Positions 10,276 through 64,000 of a stretch of 64,000 nt of DNA are shown in pieces. The translations under genes were made by a program, and so were the position numbers. Below the pieces are notes generated by a model. The model saw nothing but the letters and a program-made list of their open reading frames with translations. It made no database searches and had not been told where the DNA came from. Numbering within the stretch: the stretch's first letter is position 1; each line of letters starts with the position of its first letter. Source of the DNA: Patescibacteria group bacterium (GTDB lineage Bacteria > Patescibacteriota > Patescibacteriia > UBA1558 > GWA2-36-10); contig JBAYIR010000005.1 in the NCBI GenBank assembly GCA_041665505.1, positions 225-64,224 of the forward strand, given 5' to 3'.

Positions 10276-11595
10276 GTGATTTTGATGAGCAAAAGCAAAA
10301 GTTTTTTGTTGGCTAGTCTTATTTTTTTATTGAGTAATTTAGTTTATTTGCTTTATTTTGAAAATAAAGGCAATCATAGTTTTAACTATGGTTCTTTTTA
10401 TACTTTTAAAGCTATTGTCAAAAACACAGACAAAAAATTAAATGGCTATAATTTGATAGTAGAGCCGATAGACTTGGCCAATTTTTCTGGTCAGATATTA
10501 GTTTATACGGACTTATATCCAGAATATAGTTATGGTGATATTTTACTTATCAAAGCCAAAGTTTATCAACCAGAGCCCATTGCCGATGAAACTGGAAAAG
10601 TCTTTAGGTATGATAAATATTTAGCTAAGGATGATATTTTTGCTACTTGTTTTCGCCCTCAGATAGAAGTGTCTGATCAACAAAAGGATTGGTTTTTTTA
10701 TGTTTATCGGCTTCGACAACATCTGTGGAATAATTTAGATAGGCATCTGGTCGAGCCAGCTTCGTCACTAGCCAAGGCTATGCTTTTGGGTACTCAGCGT
10801 GAATTTGCTCCAGAGATCAGAGCTATTTTTTCTCAAGTGGGCTTAAGTCATATTATTGCTATTTCTGGTTCACATATGGTGATTGTAGTTTGGCTAATAC
10901 AAATTATTTTTCTTTCTTTTGGTTTTAATCGTAAGTTAATATTTTGGCTTTTACTTATATCTTTATTTTTGTATTTGGCTTTAATTGGGTTTTTACCGCC
11001 AGCTCTTCGATCCAGTCTAATGGTTATAATTAGTTTAGCCGGACCATTTTTGGGGCGTTCAAATTTATCAGTCTGCAGTTTGCTCTTAGTAGCTGATTTG
11101 ATGATTATTTTCAATCCTTACTTACTGATTTATGATTTGGGCTTTCAACTGTCTTTTTTATCAGTTTTGGGGCTTATTTATTATAGCCATTTTTTTACCA
11201 GATTATTTTCTTTTTTGCCTGATGTTTTTAAGATTAGAGAAGTTTTGGCTACGACGATGTCAGCTCAATTTTTTATTGTGCCACTGATTTTGTATCATTT
11301 TGGTATTTTGTCTCTTATTTCACCTTTAGCCAATTTTTTGGTTTTACCTTTAGCTACTATGATTTTAATTTTTAGTTTTCTGCTAGCTATTTTTGGTGCT
11401 TGGTCATTTTTGGCAGTGATATTTTCTTGGCCACTTTATATTTTGTTTAAAATAATGGTAGAGATTAGTGAATTTTTAGCTCGTCTGCCTTGGTCTTATT
11501 TTAATATTGATAATTTTAATGTTTATTATTTATTAATTTCTTATGTATTTTTAATTATTATTACTTTTATTTTAAAACCCCTTGAATATGAATAA
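10276..11595 (+). CDS. comEC: ComEC/Rec2 N-terminal part (DUF4131 + competence channel domain)
   Basis: Polytopic membrane protein carrying the ComEC competence-domain signature QVGLSHIIAISGSHMV. Confidence 0.8.
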   Translation: MILMSKSKSFLLASLIFLLSNLVYLLYFENKGNHSFNYGSFYTFKAIVKNTDKKLNGYNLIVEPIDLANFSGQILVYTDLYPEYSYGDILLIKAKVYQPEPIADETGKVFRYDKYLAKDDIFATCFRPQIEVSDQQKDWFFYVYRLRQHLWNNLDRHLVEPASSLAKAMLLGTQREFAPEIRAIFSQVGLSHIIAISGSHMVIVVWLIQIIFLSFGFNRKLIFWLLLISLFLYLALIGFLPPALRSSLMVIISLAGPFLGRSNLSVCSLLLVADLMIIFNPYLLIYDLGFQLSFLSVLGLIYYSHFFTRLFSFLPDVFKIREVLATTMSAQFFIVPLILYHFGILSLISPLANFLVLPLATMILIFSFLLAIFGAWSFLAVIFSWPLYILFKIMVEISEFLARLPWSYFNIDNFNVYYLLISYVFLIIITFILKPLEYE

Positions 11596-12388
11596 AAATT
11601 ATTATTTTTTATTTATTTTTTTACTTCTACTAATCTTATTTTTTACTTTAAAAAATGATGAAAAATTAGCAGTGTATTTTCTCGACGTCGGTCAAGGCGA
11701 TGCTATTTTAATCAGAACGCCAGAGAATCAAAATATTTTAATAGACGGCGGGCCGGATAATAATTTACTTTATCAAGTAGCCAATCATTTACCTTGGTGG
11801 GAAAGGACTATTGATTATTTAGTTATTACGCATTATCACACAGATCATTATGTCGGTTTTTTGGATTTATTAGATAAATATAAGATAAAAAATATTTTAG
11901 TGACAGCCAATGAGCCAAATGATTTTTTATATTATCAGTGGTTAGAAAAATTAAAAGAAAAAAATCTAAAGCCCAGTGTGGTCAGGGCAGGGGAGAACTT
12001 TGTAGTCAGTCCAGACTTAAATTGGCGAGTGCTTTTGGCGGATAGTCAGCACGAAGATTTAAATGAAAATTCTATAGTTATAAAATTGACTTATAAAGAT
12101 ACAGATTTTTTGTTGATGGGCGATTTGCCAGTGGAAGGTGAGCAAAAATTATTAGCCAGCGATTTTGATCTTGATTCGGAAATACTCAAAGTTGGCCATC
12201 ACGGTAGTAAATATTCATCTTCGGAAGAATTTTTAAAAGCAGTTTCTCCAGAAATTTGTGTGATTCAATCAGGACTAGACAATAAATTTAATCATCCCCA
12301 TGAGGAAGCTATGACAAGATTAGAAAATATCGGCTGTGATATAAGAAATACACAAAATTTAGGGCTAATTAGTTTGTTTTTTGATTAG
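11582..12388 (+). CDS. ComEC-type metallo-beta-lactamase domain protein (separate ORF, own N-terminal TM anchor)
   Basis: LDVGQGDAILIRTP and HYHTDHYVGF (HxHxDH) motifs of the ComEC C-terminal MBL domain. Overlaps the preceding ORF by 14 nt in another frame. Confidence 0.8.
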   Translation: MNMNKNYYFLFIFLLLLILFFTLKNDEKLAVYFLDVGQGDAILIRTPENQNILIDGGPDNNLLYQVANHLPWWERTIDYLVITHYHTDHYVGFLDLLDKYKIKNILVTANEPNDFLYYQWLEKLKEKNLKPSVVRAGENFVVSPDLNWRVLLADSQHEDLNENSIVIKLTYKDTDFLLMGDLPVEGEQKLLASDFDLDSEILKVGHHGSKYSSSEEFLKAVSPEICVIQSGLDNKFNHPHEEAMTRLENIGCDIRNTQNLGLISLFFD

Positions 12389-12506
12389 TATTGTCAAATT
12401 TTTTGGATATTGCTAAAATTAAATAACTTGTGAGCGATGCTTACGAGTGTTGCTCACCTAACGGCGCACCATGTGCGCCAGGCCTCTAGCCGAGGGAGAG
12501 ATTCCT

Positions 12507-12647
12507 ATGAGAATCACCATCCATCCGACGTTGACCGCGCGAAGACGGAAGAACACCGAGCAGGCGACGCAGAAGGCCACGGCGACCAAGAAGGCCGCGA
12601 GGAAGAAGAACGCCAAGAAGGCGACGAGCAGCGAGGCGATCGTCTAG
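12507..12647 (+). CDS. Candidate small basic protein (46 aa) inside island 1
   Basis: SD GGGAGAG 6 nt upstream of ATG 12507 and ~89% GC3. The overlapping acidic frame 12437..12727 has ~50% GC3 and is probably not coding. Terminator hairpin 12676-12696 plus T-run follows. Confidence 0.35.
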   Translation: MRITIHPTLTARRRKNTEQATQKATATKKAARKKNAKKATSSEAIV

Positions 12648-12955
12648 GAGACGACTTCTCCGATGATGACGAGGGGCCCCCGGACACTACGGGGGCTCTA
12701 CTTTTTTTACTGCGATTTATTATTTAGTCTTATTTATAAATATTAGTTTGGATTGACTAGTTTTAGCCTCTTTGCTATCCTAAAATCAGCATTTCTCGCA
12801 TAGCTTGTTAGCTCGGTAAGGAGGAAGTCTCAAACAAAGAGCTCTCGAGTTTTCGGGAAATGTAGCCACAAGGCTTAACCAAGGAGGTTTTAACCGATCA
12901 TCACATGCCACTATGAGAGTGGCATTCACTCCGTCATGCATGGAGGTTTGTGGGC

Positions 12956-13480
12956 ATGAAGCCTATTCTTCGGTGGGCATGCCTCAGCGGTGTGCTGGCC
13001 ATTCTGGCTATCTTGACGCCCTGCCAGGGAGCCACCTGCCAGAATGACGAAGCGGTCATCATGACCGCGCTGAATATCGCCAGTTGCGACGGCACGAGCG
13101 CCATCGCTCTGAGCGAAGTCAAGCTGACGGCTAATCCCGCGGATGGGAACGTCGTCAAGGTCACCATCAACCACCTGATGAGCGGACAGACCGTGGCTAC
13201 TGCCGGTGATGCTATTTGGCTCTACTACGCGCCTTCCTACGACGCCCGGCAGTTCAGCGACGCTTACGCGACTACTGTCGTCCTGGACGCCAACATGATC
13301 GCTTCGCCGGCACTCTTCACCTACACGCACACGGCCCGGGGTGCCCTGATGCCCGGCGACCAGCTGGTGGTTCAGCCCACCTACAATACCTCCAATACCT
13401 CGGCCAGCTCGGCCCGTACGTGGAGCTCTGATGCCACGGGCATTGCCGACATTGACATGGGCGGTCAGCAGGCCGCCTAG
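12956..13480 (+). CDS. Secreted Ala/Thr/Ser-rich protein (high-GC codon usage) inside island 1
   Basis: GGAGG 9 nt upstream of ATG 12956, signal peptide MKPILRWACLSGVLAILAILTPCQGA, TAG stop. The 8-bp inverted repeat ATGCCACT/AGTGGCAT at 12905-12925 lies just upstream. Confidence 0.5.
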   Translation: MKPILRWACLSGVLAILAILTPCQGATCQNDEAVIMTALNIASCDGTSAIALSEVKLTANPADGNVVKVTINHLMSGQTVATAGDAIWLYYAPSYDARQFSDAYATTVVLDANMIASPALFTYTHTARGALMPGDQLVVQPTYNTSNTSASSARTWSSDATGIADIDMGGQQAA

Positions 13481-13595
13481 TTCGATCTCCCGGTTCAGAG
13501 GACATACAGATCTGTGAACACCACACCGCTTTCCAAGCGGCAACAGTTGGTTTGTATCCATCTGTAAAGTCCTTCGGGTCAAGAAATGGCCCATT

Positions 13596-13660
13596 CCCGG
13601 CAAGAAGACACTATCTGGTTTCGGCCAGAGAAGACTTCTTGCCGGGTCTTCTTTTTGTCT
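13596..13660 (+). terminator. Intrinsic terminator closing island 1
   Basis: 12-bp perfect stem CCCGGCAAGAAG / CTTCTTGCCGGG followed by TCTTCTTTTTGTCTTG. Confidence 0.7.
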
Positions 13661-16158: not shown

Positions 16159-16186
16159 TTGACAAATTTTTTATTTGTGCTATAGT
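16159..16186 (+). promoter_or_regulatory. Near-consensus sigma70 promoter reading into island 2
   Basis: TTGACA (16159-16164), 16-nt spacer, extended -10 TGcTATAGT (16178-16186). A TGGTGAttTCACCA palindrome sits at the predicted transcription start. Confidence 0.6.
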
Positions 16187-16332
16187 ACACAATCTGGTGA
16201 TTTCACCATCCGTACCATTGACATTACACAGCTTGAAACAGGCTGTAGCATATTCCTCCACTAGGGAGGTATCCGCGCTTCTTGATTTCGGTCAAGAGGC
16301 ATAGTTCATGGCTCAATCATGGAGGTTTTTCC

Positions 16333-16434
16333 ATGCCCAACTGCCGCGGACCCACGCATCGCCGTCTCTCGAGTTTTCACAAGGACAACATCTTCACCAC
16401 CGACCGCGTCGCGGCCGCCAGCCCCCAGGCCTGA
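16333..16434 (+). CDS. Candidate small ORF (33 aa) in island 2
   Basis: GGAGG 8 nt upstream of ATG 16333, ~85% GC3, TGA stop. The overlapping ORF-track frame 16319..16504 has lower GC3. Confidence 0.25.
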   Translation: MPNCRGPTHRRLSSFHKDNIFTTDRVAAASPQA

Positions 16435-16666
16435 CCCGGGCGCCGGCGTCGTGATCGTGCTCCGGGAGAAATCCTGGGGCGTCCATCCACTGTTGGGTAG
16501 ATAAGGAGGCATTCGTCTATGCTTTCCTGGCTTCTGCCCGACGATGACCGTGTTGTCGAAGCCCTCGTCTGGGTCAGACAGCACAGAGTGGACCGCACCG
16601 TAAAGGCCGGTGTATGGACCACGCGTCATCGTTTTCTGACACCTGAACTGACAAGGAGAAACCAAA

Positions 16667-16780
16667 GTGTTCTTCCTCCTACCCGAGTACCGCGGGAAGG
16701 TCGCCGAAGGCGACGACCCTCACGCGGAGCGACGCGGGTTCCGCAGCGTTGTGGACGCTGTATGGGCCCATGATGAGTAG
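16667..16780 (+). CDS. Candidate small ORF (37 aa) in island 2
   Basis: AAGGAGAAACC upstream of GTG 16667, ~75% GC3, TAG stop. A further candidate ATG 16519 is preceded by TAAGGAGG, but its extent is ambiguous. Confidence 0.2.
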   Translation: MFFLLPEYRGKVAEGDDPHAERRGFRSVVDAVWAHDE

Positions 16781-17366
16781 CCTATTGCTGCTCATGAGTT
16801 CAGCCCTGGTTTTTTCCTAGGGAACGTTTGGTGCTTTGCGTCGAGGCCAGACTCGGCCCCTTTCTCTGAGAGGGCGCCGCCGGCGGTACGACGGATTGCT
16901 ACACAGCTAAAGACTTGCGCATCCCTGCGTAGCGCGCGTGCCTACGCTGCACCTGTTTCCTAGCTCGGCCCTCGGGCCCCGATGTCATGCGGACGCTTCC
17001 AGCGCCCGCGCAGACTGGGGCTCGAGGGCCTCTCATCAACACGGCCGCCAGCCGGCCTCCTTCAAGTGTTCCTCGTATTTTTTGATATGAGGTTGTCCCC
17101 GCGGGACATAATTCGCAGGATGCCCGGTGTGGTTCGTGTTGTTCTTCCCCTCGGGGGGCGCCTTCGTTTGCCGACTGCTCAGTAGCAGCCGACAATTCGA
17201 ATGGCGCTTCCCGGGGGCCTATTTTTTTTATTAAAAATTTTTATAAACAGTCCAAATCCTTGACTTTAATATTTTATTATGCTATTTTATTGGGGACTTT
17301 TGTCGCGTAATAATAATTAATTTTACGGACAGAATAGTCGCATTTTTTTATTTTTATTAACAAAAT

Positions 17367-20513: not shown

Positions 20514-20572
20514 GTTTAAAAAAAGAAGTCGCCCGCCACTGCTGCTGCAGGGCGGGCGACGAAAGCGTCAGC

Positions 20573-20803
20573 CTATGTCGGCTGATGAAGCCTCTTTTCC
20601 AGGCTTCGGACGCGAGAACGCGTGATGCCTTTGGTCTTCAGCTGAGACCAGCTCAGAGCACGGTTCTTCAGCGCTCTTTTGATCATCATGATCATGGTAA
20701 AGAGTGTCAGTTCCGTAGGATCTTCATCCTCGAAGATCAACTGAGCCTTAGTGAGGAGCTCCTCGCTGGTCATATTAAAGTCCAGGTTCACAGCTTCGGA
20801 CAT
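20573..20803 (-). CDS. Hypothetical 76-aa protein (high-GC codon usage), island 3 cassette A
   Basis: AAAGGAG 7 nt upstream of ATG (reverse strand), TAG stop. Terminator GTCGCCCGCC...GCGGGCGAC plus T-run lies at 20527-20566 on the reverse strand. Confidence 0.45.
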   Translation of the reverse strand: MSEAVNLDFNMTSEELLTKAQLIFEDEDPTELTLFTMIMMIKRALKNRALSWSQLKTKGITRSRVRSLEKRLHQPT

Positions 20804-20858
20804 CAACTACTCCTTTTCGACTGTTACATCCTTGTGCAGGGGTGAACGAGGCAACATA

Positions 20859-20890
20859 ATAACATATATTTTAAGTTTAGTCAATCCAGC
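20859..20890 (-). repeat. Direct repeat copy 1 (27-nt exact match with copy 2); encodes reverse-strand promoter TTGACT-17-TATTAT
   Basis: Forward-strand ATAACATATATTTTAAGTTTAGTCAAT(C)CAG. Sits 43 nt upstream of the cassette A start. Confidence 0.7.
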
Positions 20891-20971
20891 TCTTAGTAAG
20901 GAGCTAGATTAATATTCAAAGGGGGCGCTTCTGGCGAAGCGCCCCCTCGGTGTCGGCTGACCGATGTCGGA

Positions 20972-21418
20972 TCAGACGAAGAAGTGTATGATCTTGATGT
21001 CCAGACCGTGATGATAATAGTATTCGCCGTTCATGTCGATGCCGACAACCGAGCCATCGGCAATCTTGTCGGGCAGATCCAACTGCATGGTCTTCATCAG
21101 GATTTCATGAGCCAGTTCGCTATGGATGCTGAACATCTTGATCTTCTGGAGAATCTCGAGATGACGATCGTACTCGCTCTGGCAGGTGCCAGCACAGTGG
21201 CCACGGCACTGCTCCGGCGGACAGAGCTCCTGGTGTTCGCGTTCCAGCTCCTTGAGGTCCTGCACGATTCCGTAGAACAAGCCCCATGCTCGTTTGACGT
21301 CTTTACTCGCTTTGATGCCGAGCAGCCGTCGTGGGTCGAGGATCTCCATCTTGGGCCAAGTGACCTTATCCAGATCGATCCCTTGGGCTCGATCGTTGAG
21401 TTCGCTGAGCAGGTTCAT
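20972..21418 (-). CDS. Hypothetical 148-aa Cys-containing protein (CPPEQCRGHCAGTC), island 3 cassette B
   Basis: AGGAGG 6 nt upstream of ATG (reverse strand), TGA stop. Terminator AGGGGGCGCTTCgccaGAAGCGCCCCCT lies at 20920-20950. The 5'UTR carries the 10-bp inverted repeat TAACGGTGTA / TACACCGTTA. Confidence 0.45.
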   Translation of the reverse strand: MNLLSELNDRAQGIDLDKVTWPKMEILDPRRLLGIKASKDVKRAWGLFYGIVQDLKELEREHQELCPPEQCRGHCAGTCQSEYDRHLEILQKIKMFSIHSELAHEILMKTMQLDLPDKIADGSVVGIDMNGEYYYHHGLDIKIIHFFV

Positions 21419-21593
21419 CTTACTCCTCCTGGATTCCCTTGCTAGGGAATGAAATAACGGTGTAACACAAATACCACATTAGTTAGTACACCGTTAGGCT
21501 AACTAATGTTTTTCAAAACACAGAATTAAAGAATATTATTATTCTTCAAGTCTATATTTTAAAATTTATAAACAACATTTCAGATTTATGTTT

Positions 21594-21625
21594 ATAACAT
21601 ATATTTTAAGTTTAGTCAATTCAGT
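21594..21625 (-). repeat. Direct repeat copy 2; reverse-strand promoter TTGACT-17-TATAAA for cassette B
   Basis: ATAACATATATTTTAAGTTTAGTCAAT(T)CAG. 31 of 32 nt identical to copy 1. Confidence 0.7.
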
Positions 21626-57171: not shown

Positions 57172-58238
57172 ATGATAAAGCCAAAAAAATTTGCTACGTC
57201 TTACCCAATTTTGATCTAAATATAGATACACATTATTTTTATTTATATGATTTTATAAATGAAGTAGCCAAAGATTTAGAGCTTACACTGCTCATTGAAA
57301 AAAGCAATTCGGATATTAGTTTTTTTAAAAATGTTCATAAAATTTATCAACAAAAATTTTCATGGAAGCCACTGCGGGTAATAGAAAATTTTTTATTACT
57401 ATTTTGGATTAGACTTGCTGGTGTTAAAAATTATTATATTCACTATTCATACATTTCAGCTATCAATGCAACTGTGATAGCTCGCTTATCAGGAGCCAGG
57501 ACTTTTTATTGGAGCTGTGGCATGATGTGGCTTTTTGCTAGAGATAGAGCTTTGGAATTTATTTTAAAGTCAATTAATTATCTGGTAACTGGTGTAGAGA
57601 CCTTAAAAGCTGGATATATAGAGCATTACAATATTACCCAAGACCGAATAAAGATAATGCCTAATTGGGTTGATTTGGCTAGATTTACTAACATTGATAG
57701 CACTAAGGTTTTGGAAAAATATAAATTAAATAGTAAAGGCTTATATATTCTTTTTGTCCATCGTCTAGCCAAGCGCAAAGGTGCTCACTATATAGCTCAG
57801 CTGGCTAAAGATAATCCAGAATATAAATTTTTAATAGCAGGTGATGGGCCGTATAAAGAAGATTTAGAAAAAGAAATAAAAGATTTAAATAATGTTATAA
57901 TACTTGGCAAAGTACCCAATAAAGATATTCCCAGTTTAATGAAGATTTCCAAATTATTTTTTATGCCCTCAGAAGAAGAAGGTTTTCCCAGAGTACTTTT
58001 GGAAGCTATGGCAGCTGGTCTTCCTTATGTAGCATATGATATTGGTGGGGTCAGAGAAATAAGTAGTCCAGAGCAACAAAAATATATTGTTAGTGGAGTC
58101 AGTAATATGGATAGAGCCATTAAAAGTATTTTGAGTAGTGAGGAAGAATACAATAAATTGAAACAAGCAAATTTAGAGCAGGTCAAACAGTTTGATATCA
58201 AAATAGTTAAAGATAAATTTAGCAGATTATTTTCTTAA
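57168..58238 (+). CDS. Glycosyltransferase family 4
   Basis: EEGFPRVLLEAMAAGLPYVAYDIGGVREI. Start at ATG 57168 (MNDKAKK...). Confidence 0.8.
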   Translation: MNDKAKKICYVLPNFDLNIDTHYFYLYDFINEVAKDLELTLLIEKSNSDISFFKNVHKIYQQKFSWKPLRVIENFLLLFWIRLAGVKNYYIHYSYISAINATVIARLSGARTFYWSCGMMWLFARDRALEFILKSINYLVTGVETLKAGYIEHYNITQDRIKIMPNWVDLARFTNIDSTKVLEKYKLNSKGLYILFVHRLAKRKGAHYIAQLAKDNPEYKFLIAGDGPYKEDLEKEIKDLNNVIILGKVPNKDIPSLMKISKLFFMPSEEEGFPRVLLEAMAAGLPYVAYDIGGVREISSPEQQKYIVSGVSNMDRAIKSILSSEEEYNKLKQANLEQVKQFDIKIVKDKFSRLFS

Positions 58239-58239
58239 T

Positions 58240-59364
58240 ATGGGGGAGAAAAAAATAAAAATTGCGATTGTCATAAATAATATGATGATTGGTGGGGCAC
58301 AGAGATTGATAGTTGATCAGTTTAGATATTTTGATAGAAATAAATTTGATTATTCATTATTGATATTATCCAAATTTTCAGGGCAAGCTGATTTTATGGA
58401 CGAATTACCAAAGGATTTAAAGATTTATCAATTTGATTTTAAAAATTTTAGCAGTTTTAAAGAGTGGTTTAAATTATTTAAAATTTTACAAAAAATAAGA
58501 CCACAGGTAGTAAGATCCAGTCTATTTATGTCCAATACTATTGTCAGAGTTTTTAAACCATTTTTGGGCTATCAGGTGATAATTACAGAAAATAATACGC
58601 ATTACAATAAAAGTAAGTTTAAAATTTATTTGGACAAGCTACTAGCAATTTGGACATATAAAATAACTCCAGATTCTCAGACAGTGACTGATTTTACTAT
58701 CAAGCAGGAAAAAATAAATCAAAATAAATTTTTGACTATTTACAACGGTGTGGATATTGAGGAAATAAAAAATTATCTAAGTCTTAGTCAGGAAAATAAT
58801 TTAAAAAAAGAATTGGGTATAGCTCAAAACGGCAAGATAGTTTTAAATATCGCTAGACTAGTCAGACAAAAAAATCATAAATTACTAATAGAGTCTTTTG
58901 CTAAATTTTCTAAGCTACAGCCAGATTATAATTTGATAATAGTCGGTGATGGGACATTAATGCCAGATCTTAAAAAACAAGCCAAAGATTTGGGAGTGGA
59001 GAACAAAGTATTTTTCCCAGGCGCTAGCAAAGATTTATATCAGTATTATGCTATCAGCGATTTGTTTGTTATTAGCTCTACTCAAGAAGGATTTTGCCTG
59101 ACTGCAGTAATGGCTTTGGCTTTTGGTATACCAGTAGTAGCTACCAAGGTAGCGGGACTGGTAGAATATATAAAAGATGATTATAATGGATTGCTAGCAA
59201 CTTATAATTCAGATGAGCTGTCCCTTAAAATGTCCAAACTAGCTAGTTTGGAAATTGGGCAGAGAGAAATTTATAAAAAAAATTGCCAAGCTACAGCTGA
59301 AAACTTTGATATCAAAAAACACGCCAAAGCTTTTGAAGATTTATTTTTAGCTAGTTTAAATTAA
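58240..59364 (+). CDS. Glycosyltransferase family 4
   Basis: QEGFCLTAVMALAFGIPVVATKVAGLVEYI. Confidence 0.8.
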   Translation: MGEKKIKIAIVINNMMIGGAQRLIVDQFRYFDRNKFDYSLLILSKFSGQADFMDELPKDLKIYQFDFKNFSSFKEWFKLFKILQKIRPQVVRSSLFMSNTIVRVFKPFLGYQVIITENNTHYNKSKFKIYLDKLLAIWTYKITPDSQTVTDFTIKQEKINQNKFLTIYNGVDIEEIKNYLSLSQENNLKKELGIAQNGKIVLNIARLVRQKNHKLLIESFAKFSKLQPDYNLIIVGDGTLMPDLKKQAKDLGVENKVFFPGASKDLYQYYAISDLFVISSTQEGFCLTAVMALAFGIPVVATKVAGLVEYIKDDYNGLLATYNSDELSLKMSKLASLEIGQREIYKKNCQATAENFDIKKHAKAFEDLFLASLN

Positions 59365-59369
59365 AAAAT

Positions 59370-60023
59370 ATGTCCAAAGATTATAATATACAAGTAGATG
59401 CTGACAAGCACTATAAGAATAAAAAATATGATGACTTAGGAAGATTTATTTCTTATTATCATCAAATTGACGAAGCCAGAAAAATGTCTGTTGATAGCAT
59501 ATTGGAGATTGGTATTGGAGGCGGAGTGGTGGCTAATTATCTAAAGAGTATTGGCAAAGAGGTAAAAACTTGTGACTTTGACCAAAAAACAGGAGCAGAT
59601 ATTATCTCAGATATCAGAGATATCAATTCACCAGATAATTCTTTTGATTTGGTGATGGCTTGTCAGATACTAGAACATATTCCTTTTGAAGATTTTGCCA
59701 AAGGTTTGTCAGAAATTAGAAGAGTCAGTAAAAAATACGCCATTATATCTTTGCCTTATCGCTCTTCTTATTTTGAAATGATTATAAAATTTCCTTTTAT
59801 CCGTACACTATTTAAAAAAGATTTCTTTGATTTTAGCATCAAGCGAGCTATCAGATTTCCGGGTTTTGACCAATCAGGCCAGCATTATTGGGAGATAGAT
59901 CAAAAGCAATACAAGCTCAAAGACATCCGTACCAAGCTGGAAGAAAAATTTAAGATTTTAAATGAGTTTAGTCCGATTTTAAATAAATATCATTACTTTT
60001 TTATATTAGAAGTTAAGAAATAA
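59370..60023 (+). CDS. Class I SAM-dependent methyltransferase
   Basis: Motif I ILEIGIGGG, and motif post-I DLVMACQILEH. Confidence 0.75.
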   Translation: MSKDYNIQVDADKHYKNKKYDDLGRFISYYHQIDEARKMSVDSILEIGIGGGVVANYLKSIGKEVKTCDFDQKTGADIISDIRDINSPDNSFDLVMACQILEHIPFEDFAKGLSEIRRVSKKYAIISLPYRSSYFEMIIKFPFIRTLFKKDFFDFSIKRAIRFPGFDQSGQHYWEIDQKQYKLKDIRTKLEEKFKILNEFSPILNKYHYFFILEVKK

Positions 60024-60024
60024 G

Positions 60025-60774
60025 ATGTCAGAAAAAAAATTAGACAATCAATTTGTTAGAGAAGCTTACAATCAATCAATGGGAAATTATCCAGCTGGCT
60101 ATCATCACTGGCGTTGGTTTCGGGAAGCAATATCACGCTATCATTACAAACAGAGTAAGCGTAGTTTTTTGTATGCTCTAAAAGGTTCCCATTTTGATAA
60201 AGCTTTGGAAATAGGCGGTGGCGATGGTGAGTGGACCAAAATACTTTTGTCTTATGTTGGGCAGATAGATTTTTATGATATCTCTGAAGAAATGATGAAA
60301 CAAGCCAAAAATCGTTTGGCTGATAAACAAAATATAAATTTCTTTTTGGGAGATTTTTTGGAAAATGATTTGTCTGATTATAGCTATGATTTTATTTTAT
60401 CTTTTCGTTCTTTTGAGTATTTTGATGATAAAGAAAAGTTTTTTCAAGAAACAAAGAGATTACTCAAAAGTGGAGGGAAAATGATTATGGTTAGCAAAAG
60501 TCCACATTATGATTGGAAAAAATATTATCAAAGTAAAAAACTTCATTCAGGCATTTTGCCTATACAAGAGATAATAAAAATGTTTGCCAGTCATGATTTT
60601 GAAATAGAGTTGGTCAAACCAGCTATTGTTGGCAAAAAGTTGAGCTGGCCACTGATGCGGTTTTTGTTTGATATTTTTCACCGTAGTAATTATTTATTCA
60701 AATTTAATATCTTACCACTTTTTATTTTACAATATATTTCGGAGAGTTTTATTATTAAGGTAGTCAAAAAATAA
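60025..60774 (+). CDS. Class I SAM-dependent methyltransferase
   Basis: ALEIGGGDGEWT motif I. Confidence 0.75.
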   Translation: MSEKKLDNQFVREAYNQSMGNYPAGYHHWRWFREAISRYHYKQSKRSFLYALKGSHFDKALEIGGGDGEWTKILLSYVGQIDFYDISEEMMKQAKNRLADKQNINFFLGDFLENDLSDYSYDFILSFRSFEYFDDKEKFFQETKRLLKSGGKMIMVSKSPHYDWKKYYQSKKLHSGILPIQEIIKMFASHDFEIELVKPAIVGKKLSWPLMRFLFDIFHRSNYLFKFNILPLFILQYISESFIIKVVKK

Positions 60775-60776
60775 TT

Positions 60777-61385
60777 ATGCTCCTAGAATTATATGGACTG
60801 CCGGGTAGCGGTAAGTCAACACTAGCCAAACGCTTGGCAGAGATAGACAGCTCAAAATTTGTAGTAGTCAATTTTTCCAATAAATTGTCTAGATATTTTT
60901 ATTTATTGCTTTATATAATAAATCATCCTGTAAATTTTTATCAATGGATAATGTTTTTATTACAAAATAAAAAATTGTTTATTTATAAATTGCATTTGTT
61001 ATTTTTATCTCTGGCCAAGATGCAAAAAGCCAGCTTTATAAAAAATAAGCAGGCCTTAGTAGATGAAGGATTATTACAAAGAGTTTTGACTATTTCGGAT
61101 AATTTGGTAGATGATAAGTCATTGGATAAATTATTAAAATATTTAGTCAGTCCAGTCCATTTGATTATTATGGAGGGTGGTGTTTTTCATCGTTTTATAA
61201 CAGACGAGCAGAAAGATAATAGCCCTAGATTAAAATTGGGGCAAGATTATTTTGTAGCCTGGCAAAATATGCTAGAGAAAAATAATAATATTATAAAAAG
61301 ATATTTAGCCGATAAAAAAAATTTAAAGGTAGCTATATATAATAAAGAATCTATTAAGGCAGAGGATATTGTCTCTGGCATTTAA
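60777..61385 (+). CDS. P-loop NTPase/kinase-like protein
   Basis: Walker A LYGLPGSGKSTLAKRL at the N-terminus; 202 aa. Confidence 0.55.
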   Translation: MLLELYGLPGSGKSTLAKRLAEIDSSKFVVVNFSNKLSRYFYLLLYIINHPVNFYQWIMFLLQNKKLFIYKLHLLFLSLAKMQKASFIKNKQALVDEGLLQRVLTISDNLVDDKSLDKLLKYLVSPVHLIIMEGGVFHRFITDEQKDNSPRLKLGQDYFVAWQNMLEKNNNIIKRYLADKKNLKVAIYNKESIKAEDIVSGI

Positions 61386-61452
61386 TTTTTGGGTAAATAA
61401 AGAAGCGCCTCACGGGTGGACTGATGTCCCGCCGCGAGGCGCCCAAGACGAT

Positions 61453-61878
61453 TCATACAACATCGCCGCTGTCTTCATATCGTACGCCATCGCTATCGAG
61501 GCGTACCTCAATGCTGGTGTCAAACACGCTGCAGAGGGTTTGGCACAACTCTACGACTTCTTGGCGATGCATTTCGCCGTTGAATTCAAAGACCCAGTGG
61601 TCTTCGGTAGCACTTCGCCGGCTGTTCTCGAACCAGATGACACCGATGAGCAGGTGCATGTGTTGTCCCAGCAGCAGACGCAGCAGGCCCCGGCGAGGCT
61701 TCTTGGTGGGGTTCCATTTGAGAATCCCCAGTGAATCTTCGGGTGACAGGGGAGCTTTGAGTTTACTCCCGCCACATGATGCCAACTCCCAGCCTTGGTT
61801 CTTGAGCCATCGCCCAACTCGGATCGAGATGTGGACATCTGACACCTTAACTTCAGGAGTGTTCACGTCTAACCTCAC
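61453..61878 (-). CDS. Candidate 141-aa protein in island 4 (GTG start, weak SD)
   Basis: Reverse frame with plausible amino-acid composition, GC3-biased codons and a TGA stop. Other overlapping frames look like high-GC artefacts. Confidence 0.3.
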   Translation of the reverse strand: MRLDVNTPEVKVSDVHISIRVGRWLKNQGWELASCGGSKLKAPLSPEDSLGILKWNPTKKPRRGLLRLLLGQHMHLLIGVIWFENSRRSATEDHWVFEFNGEMHRQEVVELCQTLCSVFDTSIEVRLDSDGVRYEDSGDVV

Positions 61879-61934
61879 TTGCTAGGGGTGTACATTCATT
61901 GCCGCACTACTTTTGTAGTAGTCTTGACCTTGTG

Positions 61935-62489
61935 TCAGGCCAGACCGCGTCGCAGCTTGGCTGCGAAGTCCTTGGCGTAGTCTTCCTTGACCTGGAAGTC
62001 GGCCTGAGCTTCCGGCAGCAGACAGCGGAACTGTCCGATCACGTGCTGCTCCAAGTAGCTCAGCGACTCTTCCACGGTCTTGCCCATCGCCGCCCCACTG
62101 GCGAAGGTCTTGACGATCCAGAAGGTCTCGCCACCCTCCAAGAGGTGGGCATCGTGGACGATGTCGCCTTCGATGGTCAGGATGTCGTCGGGATTGGTGT
62201 CCTTCTGAGAATCCCAGGCAGTCCGGACAATGCGAGCAATGTCGCCCTCGCACACCTGCTGCGAACGCAGGAAAGTGATGGTGGCTTCTTCGCCGCCGGG
62301 CAGATGAATAACGCCATGGAAGTACAGCGCGACCCGGATCAGCTTCAGACTGGCCTCAGGGTAGTTCCGGGTCAGTTTCACGGAGATGTCCCAGATGCGG
62401 TCGATGTGGCACATGTTGTGCATCACGTCTTTGGCTTCGTAGTAGGGAGCTACGAAGTTGGAGACAGAGGAGAGCTTGAGTTTATCCAT
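61935..62489 (-). CDS. Hypothetical 184-aa protein in island 4
   Basis: ATG 62489 with AAAGG 9 nt upstream, TGA stop, GC3-biased. Contains MHNMCHIDRIW...YFHGVIH, His-rich and possibly metal-binding. The ORF-track start at 62558 runs into the promoter. Confidence 0.5.
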   Translation of the reverse strand: MDKLKLSSVSNFVAPYYEAKDVMHNMCHIDRIWDISVKLTRNYPEASLKLIRVALYFHGVIHLPGGEEATITFLRSQQVCEGDIARIVRTAWDSQKDTNPDDILTIEGDIVHDAHLLEGGETFWIVKTFASGAAMGKTVEESLSYLEQHVIGQFRCLLPEAQADFQVKEDYAKDFAAKLRRGLA

Positions 62490-62529
62490 CGTGTGGCCTT
62501 TCGGTTGGGGTACATAGGGCGGACTATAT

Positions 62530-62558
62530 ATAATAGCATATATGTTAGTTTTTGTCAA
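62530..62558 (-). promoter_or_regulatory. Consensus sigma70 promoter (reverse strand) driving the island 4 genes
   Basis: Reverse strand reads TTGACA, 17-nt spacer AAAACTAACATATATGC, then TATTAT. Lies in AT-rich DNA flanking the island. Confidence 0.65.
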
Positions 62559-62622
62559 TAAGAATCAATAATAACATATTTGACTTTTAAGGCTCTAAAT
62601 GGTATGGTTTTTTAAGTAATTT

Positions 62623-63861
62623 ATGCAAATTTTACGCAATATTAAAGCAATTATTCGTAGTATTTTGGCCTGGATTATCTATGGTTTATCTTTTTTAGTA
62701 CCCAAAGATAAAAAGCTATGGATTGTCATGGGTTGGCGAAAAAATAAGCAAGGAGAGCTATTTGGTGATAATGCTAAGTATTTTTTTCTATATGCTTCAC
62801 AAAATCTCAAAGATATTAAAGTAATTTGGCTTGGACAAGATAATAGAATATGTCAGAGACTCAAAGAGCATAATTACCTAGCTTATAATCTTAATAGTTT
62901 AAAAGGTATTTGGGCATCTATGCGAGCCGGCTATACTATAGTTGATGCTAATATTCGTCTAGAAAATTGGCAGTATAGTGGTGGTTCTAGATTAGTGCAA
63001 CTCTGGCATGGTAAGTCACTGAAAAAAATGGGGCATAATAGTCCTTACGCTATGGGTAAATACAGAAAATTTTTAGCCCCAAATTTATTTCGCAAATTTT
63101 ATCTATTAACAGCGGCTTCTAAGTTTTTGGGAGATTTTAATGTCTCAGGTTTTAGAATGAAGTCAGAAGATTTATTGGTCAGTGGTCTGCCCCGCTATGA
63201 TATTTTATTTTCTGATATTAAAGATTCCGATATAGATGTAGATAAAGATTTTGAAGAAAAATTAAAAGAGTTAAAAGCCAAAAATTATAATAAGATAATT
63301 TTTTATGCGCCGACTTTTCGTCCAGATGGTAGCAATCCTTTAGCTGGTGCCGACTTAGTAGCTTTGGATAAAGTTTTAGAGCAGCAAAATGATTATTGTC
63401 TGGTGTCACTTCATCCCAAGTTTGCCACCAAAGATTGGCAACCAGATGAAAAATTTCATAATTTGGAATTTGTAAATACTGGTTCGGATTTATATCCTTT
63501 GATGAAATATTTTGATTTACTAATTACTGATTATTCATCTTTAGCTTTGGATTTTCTATTAGTCAAAGTACCAGCTATATTATATATTTATGATTTAGAA
63601 TCTTTTAAAGCCGGTATGGGTCTACACAAAGAAATAGTAGAAGCTACGCCAGGTCCTAGAGTAGCGACTTTTCCAGATTTGTTAGAGGTGCTAAAAGGTG
63701 ATAGCTATATTTGGTCTAGTGAACATGATAAAGCTAGGGATTTATTTTTTTCTTATCAAGATGCTCATTCAGCCAAGAGAATAGCTGATGAACTGATCAG
63801 TGTAATGGATGTATCTGGACAAACTATAGCAGAGAGCAAAAAATTTTTAACAGCTAAATAA
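62623..63861 (+). CDS. CDP-glycerol glycerophosphotransferase (TagF/TagB family, Glyphos_transf)
   Basis: IIFYAPTFRPDG and LITDYSSLALDFLL motifs. N-terminal membrane-association region. Confidence 0.8.
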   Translation: MQILRNIKAIIRSILAWIIYGLSFLVPKDKKLWIVMGWRKNKQGELFGDNAKYFFLYASQNLKDIKVIWLGQDNRICQRLKEHNYLAYNLNSLKGIWASMRAGYTIVDANIRLENWQYSGGSRLVQLWHGKSLKKMGHNSPYAMGKYRKFLAPNLFRKFYLLTAASKFLGDFNVSGFRMKSEDLLVSGLPRYDILFSDIKDSDIDVDKDFEEKLKELKAKNYNKIIFYAPTFRPDGSNPLAGADLVALDKVLEQQNDYCLVSLHPKFATKDWQPDEKFHNLEFVNTGSDLYPLMKYFDLLITDYSSLALDFLLVKVPAILYIYDLESFKAGMGLHKEIVEATPGPRVATFPDLLEVLKGDSYIWSSEHDKARDLFFSYQDAHSAKRIADELISVMDVSGQTIAESKKFLTAK

Positions 63862-63868
63862 TATAATT

Positions 63869-64000
63869 ATGTCCAAAATAAAAATATTAATTACTGACAA
63901 TATAGATCAAACAGGCGTAGATATGATGGAGGCCGAAGGCTATGAAGTAAGGCAAGAACAAAAATTGTCCAATGATGCTCTGCTACTCATAATTAAAGAC
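63869..64000 (+). CDS. 5'-partial CDS, probable D-isomer-specific 2-hydroxyacid dehydrogenase (e.g. phosphoglycerate dehydrogenase-like)
   Basis: MSKIKILITDNIDQTGVDMMEAEGYEVR... is typical of the N-terminus of this family. Runs off the window. Confidence 0.45.
   Translation, partial: MSKIKILITDNIDQTGVDMMEAEGYEVRQEQKLSNDALLLIIKD

Follow-up and report, generated by a model that had tools for sequence, protein, structure and literature searches.

The window examined here (W) is a 64,000-nt stretch of a ~33% guanine + cytosine (GC) contig from a Patescibacteria metagenome-assembled genome (MAG) of Komeilibacteria-like affiliation, its closest named relatives being Candidatus Komeilibacteria. Within a glycopolymer cluster of glycosyltransferases, methyltransferases and tagF, it carries a self-contained two-gene unit on the reverse strand, island 4, in which GC rises from ~0.28 to 0.51–0.60 between ~61400 and ~62520, the predicted transcript itself being 55–60% GC. 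Taking the evidence as a whole, we explain this unit as probably a native accessory slot, not a recent foreign island: its promoter and first gene recur at the same position in diverged relatives, its second gene appears to be a later arrival, and the genes in the slot exceed their hosts in GC across the lineages compared. Atypical GC is a standard signal of recent horizontal transfer, and here that signal is misleading. An orthologous, position-conserved gene stands 55 points of third-codon-position GC (GC3) above its genome, and its orthologs are elevated too, which points to a force other than recent import. We consider the finding more than a routine genomic islet, since the compositional anomaly survives orthology.

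A conserved slot beside tagF

The slot between tagF and a convergent P-loop gene was read in L001–L006, L007, L012, L040 and L009/L010, and was aligned using three diverged lineages, L001 (Komeilibacteria RIFOXY), L007 and L009/L010. A first-pass annotation, made from the sequence alone, had described a reverse-strand unit of anomalous GC with a consensus promoter and 17-nt spacer at 62530–62558 in host-type DNA, a 184-amino-acid (aa) gene with a TGA stop at 61935–62489, a second open reading frame (ORF) at 61453–61878 and a closing hairpin with a T-rich tract. All of these elements were recovered, the TTGACA/TATTAT promoter by scan and the self-contained character of the unit from its GC step, promoter and terminator. 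The features of the unit and of the adjoining tagF promoter are as follows.

62553–62558, reverse strand: −35 hexamer TTGACA, found by promoter scan and invariant in W, L001, L007 and L009
62530–62538, reverse strand: extended −10 TGcTATTAT (TATTAT at 62535–62530), separated from the −35 by 17 nt, found by promoter scan
62490–62523, reverse strand: putative GC-rich 5′ untranslated region (UTR) of ~34 nt with a weak AAAGG ribosome-binding site (RBS), read from the sequence
61935–62489, reverse strand: gene 1, 184 aa, TGA stop, a YpgQ/YedJ-like HD-fold protein with the doublet HG, from homologs, synteny, profile and AlphaFold2/Foldseek
61867–61934, reverse strand: intercistronic spacer of 68 nt with a hairpin at 61906–61922 and the GAGG RBS of gene 2, from folding and the L009 alignment
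61453–61866, reverse strand: gene 2, 137 aa from the NCBI start (the second GTG, 61866) or 141 aa from an alternative GTG at 61878
61392–61444, reverse strand: intrinsic terminator with a 13-bp GC-rich stem and an inner 4-bp stem, followed by UUCUUUAUUU, from folding and conservation in L009
62580–62608, forward strand: tagF promoter TTGACT-17-TGgTATGGT, divergent from and back to back with the unit promoter; the tagF ATG is at 62623

In the 2.3 kb scanned (60700–63000), the unit promoter is the sole 11/12 promoter match with an extended −10. It shares one intergenic block with the tagF promoter, and both are conserved in four lineages (W, L001, L007 and L009/L010). Throughout these lineages the unit promoter retains an invariant TTGACA, the 17-nt spacer and TGnTAnnAT, the −10 at the matching position reading TGtTATTAT, TGtTACTAT and TGcTACAAT in the relatives. 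The motif TTGAC-N14-16-TGnTAnnnT occurs 9 times in W (0.6 expected) and precedes the host genes rpsL and tagF as well as four GC-rich islands; because it serves host genes as well as islands, the island 4 promoter belongs to the organism's own strong promoter type. From these alignments the unit promoter, which is of predicted sigma-70 type, is native and old, and transcription would start ~6–7 nt past the −10. Folding of the 5′ UTR (62490–62523) gave no significant structure, and a 207-aa TTG-start ORF (61935–62558) was rejected as it overlaps the promoter.

Codon-position patterns identify both genes as protein-coding. In gene 1, the product of which is identical to the NCBI MAG protein WCV71_03645, GC by codon position is 0.60/0.37/0.79, and differences between gene 2 and an 82%-identical homolog fall 20/11/31 across the three positions. 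The best homologs of gene 1, in L001–L006, L012, L040 and L007, occupy the very same place between tagF and the P-loop gene and point the same way. The earlier proposal that the island interrupts an otherwise adjacent P-loop gene and tagF therefore fails, the slot in L001/L012 and L007 holding the same promoter and a gene 1 ortholog. Gene 1 proteins are 54.7% (W–L001), 50.3% (W–L007) and 55.3% (L001–L007) identical, compared with about 66–78% for the flanking host proteins across the same pairings, and in a neighbour-joining tree of 28 family members W, L001/L012 and L007 form one clade. This pattern of divergence, combined with a clade shared with the syntenic orthologs, argues for a faster-evolving gene inherited in place, not one obtained from a distant donor. 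We take gene 1, on the strength of these comparisons, to be the ancestral occupant of the tagF slot and the positional ortholog of the slot gene in the relatives. Searches of 5.8 billion proteins, of genomic and metagenomic contigs and of viral, phage and plasmid collections found no closer or GC-rich homolog of gene 1.

The first-pass annotation had favoured recent acquisition of the whole island, a view that survives for gene 2, which behaves as an addition, and not for gene 1 and the promoter, which are conserved residents in the relatives. Gene 2 does not occur in L001 or L007, where a terminator or a convergent gene lies directly after gene 1, and its sole close homolog (82% identical) stands in L009/L010 directly behind the shared promoter, without gene 1. 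An exhaustive HMMER search retrieved a family of 148 cluster representatives at E ≤ 1e-3, all of 125–160 aa. The family has no Pfam and no PDB match, the AlphaFold2 model of gene 2 is poor (predicted local distance difference test (pLDDT) 47), and no closer homolog was found among the 5.8 billion proteins or in the phage, plasmid and viral collections. Gene 2 thus appears to be a later, accessory addition to the slot, drawn from an uncharacterised ~140-aa family.

The terminator stem (61403–61444) folds at −33.6 kcal/mol (z = −4.9; 0 of 200 shuffles fold as well) and is kept in L009 at −33.4 kcal/mol. The spacer hairpin at 61906–61922, where homology between the W and L009 cassettes starts, is not significant alone in W (z = −0.05), and the corresponding hairpin in L009 differs in its stem bases (z = −2.0). 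We propose that the conserved back-to-back block would supply a strong promoter with an extended −10, pointing away from tagF, and that in the W lineage this promoter would yield a predicted bicistronic mRNA of ~1.13 kb, ended by the strong intrinsic terminator just ahead of the stop codon of the convergent P-loop gene. The arrangement recurs in independent data: L011, a separate Joint Genome Institute (JGI) contig, equals W over the entire island and both junctions, and L009 and L010, from two further metagenomes, have the same promoter–gene 2–terminator layout.

Exchange between lineages and GC-rich tracts

Nucleotide identity between L009 and W is ~86% over W 62751–62534, made up of the 5′ end of tagF and the promoter block, and again ~86% over the cassette at W 61904–61386, whereas the own tagF of L009 is only 59.5% identical to that of W in protein and 68.8% in nucleotides. 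Positions 62630–62751 of W match L009 twice, in the real tagF and in an upstream fragment with small indels, in which a 2-nt gap shifts the frame, as read from the alignment. This dead, frameshifted W-type tagF 5′ end lies at 2416–2635 in L009 and at 1790–2009 in L010, in each case upstream of the own tagF start. From the two tagF matches, and from a cassette at ~86% identity next to an own tagF at 59.5%, it follows that a W-like tagF′–promoter–gene 2–terminator segment moved into the L009 lineage. The tagF fragment is a scar left by this transfer, with which the promoter and gene 2 arrived. The alignments show the unit to have been exchanged horizontally between Patescibacteria lineages, and the case documents a promoter–gene–terminator unit moving between such lineages with a piece of the donor's neighbouring gene.

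Differences between W and the strain contig L011 were also confined to the vicinity of tagF: all 49 lie within W 63556–63967, the last ~400 bp of the gene and just past it, and the 2.96 kb before this cluster of single-nucleotide polymorphisms (SNPs) are fully identical. The cluster looks like a recent recombination tract.

Host GC3 in W has a mean of 0.241 (s.d. 0.034, n = 59 genes), against which gene 1 reaches 0.79 (z = 16) and gene 2 0.62 (z = 11), with C-rich third positions. Slot genes also exceed their hosts in L001 (0.415 versus 0.30, z = 5.5), in L007 (0.367 versus 0.157, z = 11) and, for gene 2, in L009 (0.55 versus 0.26). The first-pass annotation had reasoned that conserved homologs of similar GC in relatives would indicate ancient acquisition; conserved homologs do exist, at a GC lower than in W though above that of their own hosts. 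Between W and L009, gene 2 has 38 sites with GC in W and AT in L009, and 18 of the reverse kind. Elsewhere in bacteria and archaea, members of the gene 1 family have a GC equal to or below that of their own genomes, and members of the gene 2 family (L079 and L080 were checked) have native GC. GC3 is higher in gene 1, the older resident, than in gene 2, which arrived later; amelioration would predict the reverse. The GC-rich tract begins a few bases from the predicted transcription start and ends at the terminator, and the tagF 5′ end that was co-transferred with the cassette is not elevated (0.28 GC). At the amino-acid level, changes on the W branch of gene 1 run towards G/A/R/P 7 times and away 3 times, and away from F/Y/M/I/N/K 8 times and towards them 5 times; both directions fit a GC shift, on counts too small to discriminate between hypotheses. 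Because host proteins are 70–90% identical, synonymous sites are saturated, so that a GC3 of 0.4–0.8 on a background of 0.16–0.30 is no passive relic; either repeated import then renews it or a local force keeps it up.

Further GC-rich tracts occur in W at 12430–12700, 12790–13650, 16180–17230 and 20520–21450, each beginning a few bases past a promoter of the island 4 type and closed by a hairpin plus T-run. Their slots were compared with relatives anchored on EF-G, namely L038 (92% identical), L039 (88%), L082 (89%) and L077 (92%), with collinear host DNA and nucleotide alignments that are interrupted precisely at the tracts. Two of the three other island slots hold GC-elevated counterparts in relatives. 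Elevation is similar across the slots of one genome, in the order W > L038 > L039/L001 > L082. These other islands comprise the following.

12390–12700: island 1a, GC ~0.57, with TTGTCA-17-TGcTAAAAT, two 5′ hairpins, a GGGAG RBS, a very basic peptide of 46 aa (MRITIHPTLTARRRKNTEQATQKATATKKAARKKNAKKATSSEAIV) and a terminator
12750–13655: island 1b, with its own promoter, a GGAGG RBS, a signal-peptide protein of 174/176 aa (GC3 0.77) and a terminator
16159–17235: island 2, 1.05 kb at 0.61 GC, with TTGACA-17-TGcTATAGT, ending in a hairpin and T-run
20520–21625, reverse strand: island 3, with genes of 76 aa and 148 aa and GGAG-type RBSs

The island 1a slot again contains two hairpins and a small basic peptide in L038 (5540–5790) and L039 (6130–6400), at GC 0.47–0.49; the island 1b slot holds a different secreted protein of 106 aa in L038 (GC 0.52) and nothing in L039. 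Island 2 has short ORFs only (33–60 aa, with good RBSs) and a 3′ part of ~430 nt without a convincing ORF, a search of it against Rfam gave nothing significant, and its slot, between an M50 peptidase gene and rpsL, is empty (110–185 bp) in L038, L039, L077 and L082. In island 3, a 25-nt promoter segment occurs in two exact copies, at 20861–20885 and 21596–21620, one for each gene. The island 3 slot in relatives holds positional homologs of the 148-aa gene (W148) that are fast-evolving (21–27% identical) and have a GC3 of 0.59 in L038, 0.53 in L039 and 0.38 in L082, versus ~0.2–0.3 in the hosts; in L082 the slot contains orthologs of both island 3 genes plus an extra YfbR-like HD_3 gene, with host-like GC. 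Scans of viral contigs with gene 1, gene 2, W148 and the island 1b protein found no relatives. Two contigs of closely related genomes, L076 (EF-G 98% identical, 2.6× coverage) and L078 (92%), extend only from immediately upstream of rpsL to immediately downstream of fusA. They break off close to the positions of islands 2 and 3 in W, which may be due to differences between strains at these slots or to low coverage.

Ribosome-binding sites also set the islands apart. A Shine–Dalgarno (SD) core (GGAG, GAGG or AGGA) lies upstream of a single host gene in W, tuf (1 of 59), and host genes are likewise SD-poor in L038 and L039, with A/T-rich leaders. Apart from gene 1 of island 4, with its weak AAAGG, the island genes carry GGAGG, AAGGAGG or GAGG sites. 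GC-rich units together with nearly exclusive SD-type sites point to a distinct expression class in these ultra-small symbiotic bacteria. A full-text literature search found no account of GC-enriched, SD-bearing accessory units in fixed Patescibacteria slots, which does not prove that none exists.

Competing explanations of the GC elevation

As a native accessory slot, the promoter–gene–terminator unit would behave as a phage 'moron' does, but within a cellular chromosome, and would be swapped by recombination among related Patescibacteria. Its extreme GC would then be an extreme case of a clade-wide trait of small, self-contained accessory units in conserved intergenic slots, in which a persisting local force may keep GC high despite saturating divergence. 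That force is most likely, with low confidence, selection on the whole transcript, through its structure, its stability or SD-dependent translation. The extreme GC of gene 1 is, in our assessment, not the footprint of a recent import. The contrary account, which we regard as unlikely, holds that the entire GC-rich stretch, or at minimum a GC-rich gene 1 allele plus gene 2, came recently from an SD-using, GC-rich organism or element, settled behind the resident promoter in place of an AT-richer gene 1 and have yet to ameliorate. Such a donor would explain GC3 values of 0.79 and 0.62 against 0.24 with C-rich third positions, SD-type sites on island genes in a genome otherwise devoid of them, the absence of gene 2 from L001 and L007 and the demonstrable movement of the unit between lineages; the W-only insertion of island 2 and the ends of contigs L076 and L078 near the island 2 and 3 slots fit it as well. 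It sits poorly with slot genes that are GC-elevated in every lineage despite saturating host divergence, and repeated import of gene 1 in particular is disfavoured because the nearest homologs are syntenic Patescibacteria genes forming one clade, because neither a GC-rich nor a closer homolog exists in the proteins, contigs (searched for gene 1) and viral, phage and plasmid collections, because the families have native GC elsewhere and because the older gene is GC-richer than the newer. There is also no integrase ORF in 58000–64000 and no transfer RNA (tRNA) or transfer-messenger RNA (tmRNA) gene in the window by ARAGORN, and the sole flanking repeat is a 12-nt, AT-only sequence that is not conserved. 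This perfect direct repeat, CTATATATAATA (61333–61344 and 62524–62535), was considered as a target-site duplication and judged coincidental, because it consists of A/T only in AT-rich DNA, overlaps the conserved −10, has its other copy within the P-loop gene and does not occur in the relatives. A phage or plasmid origin was rejected, as blastn against phages and plasmids gave no match and no viral-contig relatives were found, and so was a defence origin, for which the sole PADLOC match, to QatA at E = 0.044, is at noise level. A structured RNA was likewise discarded: Rfam gave none at gathering thresholds in the whole window or at E ≤ 1 in 61300–62700, and both ORFs are coding.

GC-biased gene conversion at recombination hot spots, with slots exchanged by natural transformation or homologous recombination, is a rather improbable source of the elevation. 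It accords with the cassette exchange across flanking homology in L009, with the 49 SNPs of L011 that cluster at the 3′ end of tagF beside a fully identical stretch, a pattern that suggests a recombination tract, with slot contents that differ between lineages, with a ComEC-type competence gene at 10285–12388 and with an elevation that differs by lineage and is similar across the slots of one genome. Biased gene conversion in bacteria is reported to have effects of a few GC3 points, not about 55. Mutational and conversion accounts are moreover disfavoured because the GC tract coincides with the predicted transcription unit, bounded by its start and its terminator, because the co-transferred tagF 5′ end is not elevated and because the sense strand has no skew. 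Strand-asymmetric mutation by transcription-coupled deamination or editing was rejected on the last of these grounds, sense-strand GC skew being ~0 and AT skew +0.05 to +0.08, with neither A nor C depleted. Translational selection favouring codons that end in C was rejected as well, since highly expressed host genes are not GC3-rich (EF-G C3 0.087, tuf GC3 0.18). The first-pass annotation had named assembly error as a further possibility, and a chimera in which reads of a GC-rich organism had been joined to an AT-rich contig, during assembly or binning, would show an abrupt composition switch; the low-coverage contigs L076 and L078, which end near the island 2 and 3 slots, would be in keeping with it. 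We consider such an artefact highly improbable given that L011 has the same island and junctions, that L009 and L010 repeat the design at 86% identity, that gene 1 orthologs occupy the same slot and that functional signals sit exactly at the boundaries.

Several points weigh against a native slot whose GC is maintained in place. Island 2 (16180–17230) is present only in W and yet is the GC-richest of the islands, which fits import better than slow enrichment in situ. The tagF slot was read in relatives more diverged than the closest ones (EF-G 90–98% identical), which leaves the GC course of gene 1 along the W branch conjectural, and the neighbour-joining tree is a simple one with long branches. 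The transcription start, co-transcription and expression level of the unit are predictions from sequence. Gene 1 has a weak AAAGG only and was scored as without an SD core, as was the annotated start of the slot 3 gene in L038. The data do not separate RNA selection, biased gene conversion and repeated replacement from an unsampled GC-rich pool.

A wider version of the native-slot reading, in our opinion a speculative and improbable one, is that Komeilibacteria-like Patescibacteria keep accessory genes as GC-enriched mini-operons in fixed slots under a separate expression regime, with composition driven or maintained transcript-wide. If this were true, each unit would combine a consensus promoter, an SD-type RBS and a strong terminator in a genome that otherwise has no such sites, and its mRNAs would survive or be translated where the AU-rich bulk transcriptome is not, island 4 being the most extreme example so far. 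A still more speculative variant would have the units tuned to a GC-rich host cell.

Known systems and the predicted fold of gene 1

Phage morons are independent transcription units in lambdoid prophages (PMC3594210). Island 4 resembles them in having its own sigma-70 promoter and intrinsic terminator, a GC unlike that of its neighbours, a position between genes of a conserved block and horizontal spread. It differs in lying in a cellular chromosome, within a glycopolymer cluster that has no phage genes around it, and in lacking viral relatives; moreover, its promoter and gene 1 are conserved residents, its GC anomaly persists over deep divergence and gene 2 alone is an addition. With GC-atypical genomic islets it shares a sharp GC step, atypical codon usage and gene content that varies between lineages, but it measures only 1.1 kb, has no integrase or tRNA, and its main gene is orthologous and syntenic in relatives. 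By the usual marks of a genomic island, its composition is that of an island, absence from the orthologous site applies to gene 2 only, and mobility signatures are lacking.

In SD-poor bacteria such as Bacteroidia, the anti-SD sequence is sequestered and a few genes keep an SD for special regulation. W is similar in being nearly SD-free among host genes (1 of 59) while a small, distinct gene set keeps SD sites, and dissimilar in that these sites are coupled with extreme GC enrichment, which is not known to be part of a Bacteroidia-type system.

A check for a metal-dependent hydrolase fold, which the first-pass annotation had suggested for the 184-aa protein, supported the fold and not the metal motif. 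The gene 1 family profile matched PDB entries 3b57 (Lin1889, E = 7e-13) and 3gw7 (YedJ, E = 6e-9), as well as 3djb (an HD-family hydrolase) and 5dqv (YpgQ of B. subtilis). The AlphaFold2 model of gene 1 (pLDDT 93) has an all-helical HD fold, and its top Foldseek matches were 5dqv/5dqw (YpgQ), 3b57, 2pjq and 3djb, with template-modelling (TM) scores of 0.69–0.75 and a probability of 1.0. The profile also matched NCBIfam PRK10119 at E = 8e-8, far below the cutoff of that model. The W protein itself gave no match to Pfam HD even at E ≤ 1, and 8 of 11 relatives matched PF01966 (best E = 5e-6).

YpgQ binds Mn via H29, H58, D59 and D124 (PMC8177086). The corresponding H...HD...D motif was not found in gene 1, where the doublet reads H58-G59 with a Gly that all 28 family sequences share, an invariance that is partly circular and to that extent tells against our interpretation, YFHG having been among the patterns used to collect the family. 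Gene 1 keeps H28, H58 and D113 and has extra invariant His residues at H24, H112 and H115; the full set of invariant family residues is H24, H28, H58, G59, S94, H112, D113, H115, E118 and G119, and includes a downstream motif H112-D113-A-H115. Gene 1 therefore shares with YpgQ, YedJ and Lin1889 (5dqv, 3gw7 and 3b57) the all-helical fold at TM ~0.7, the first His of the doublet and the H..H motif of helix 2 (MHNxxHIxR against GHDxxHIxRV), and departs from them in that YpgQ D59 is replaced by the invariant Gly and the DAD-type motif reads HDAH. It is likely to have a remodelled, possibly His-rich metal site, or to be a binding protein, rather than a standard H..HD..D phosphohydrolase. As the fold is there and the H..HD..D motif is not, we call it a YpgQ-like HD-fold protein, a name for the predicted fold only, with no activity assigned. 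A search against PHROGs gave a sole match, a partial one of gene 1 (residues 10–61, E = 5e-5) to phrog_3921, whose function is unknown. Given that gene 1 neighbours tagF within a glycopolymer cluster, its substrate may be nucleotide-linked.

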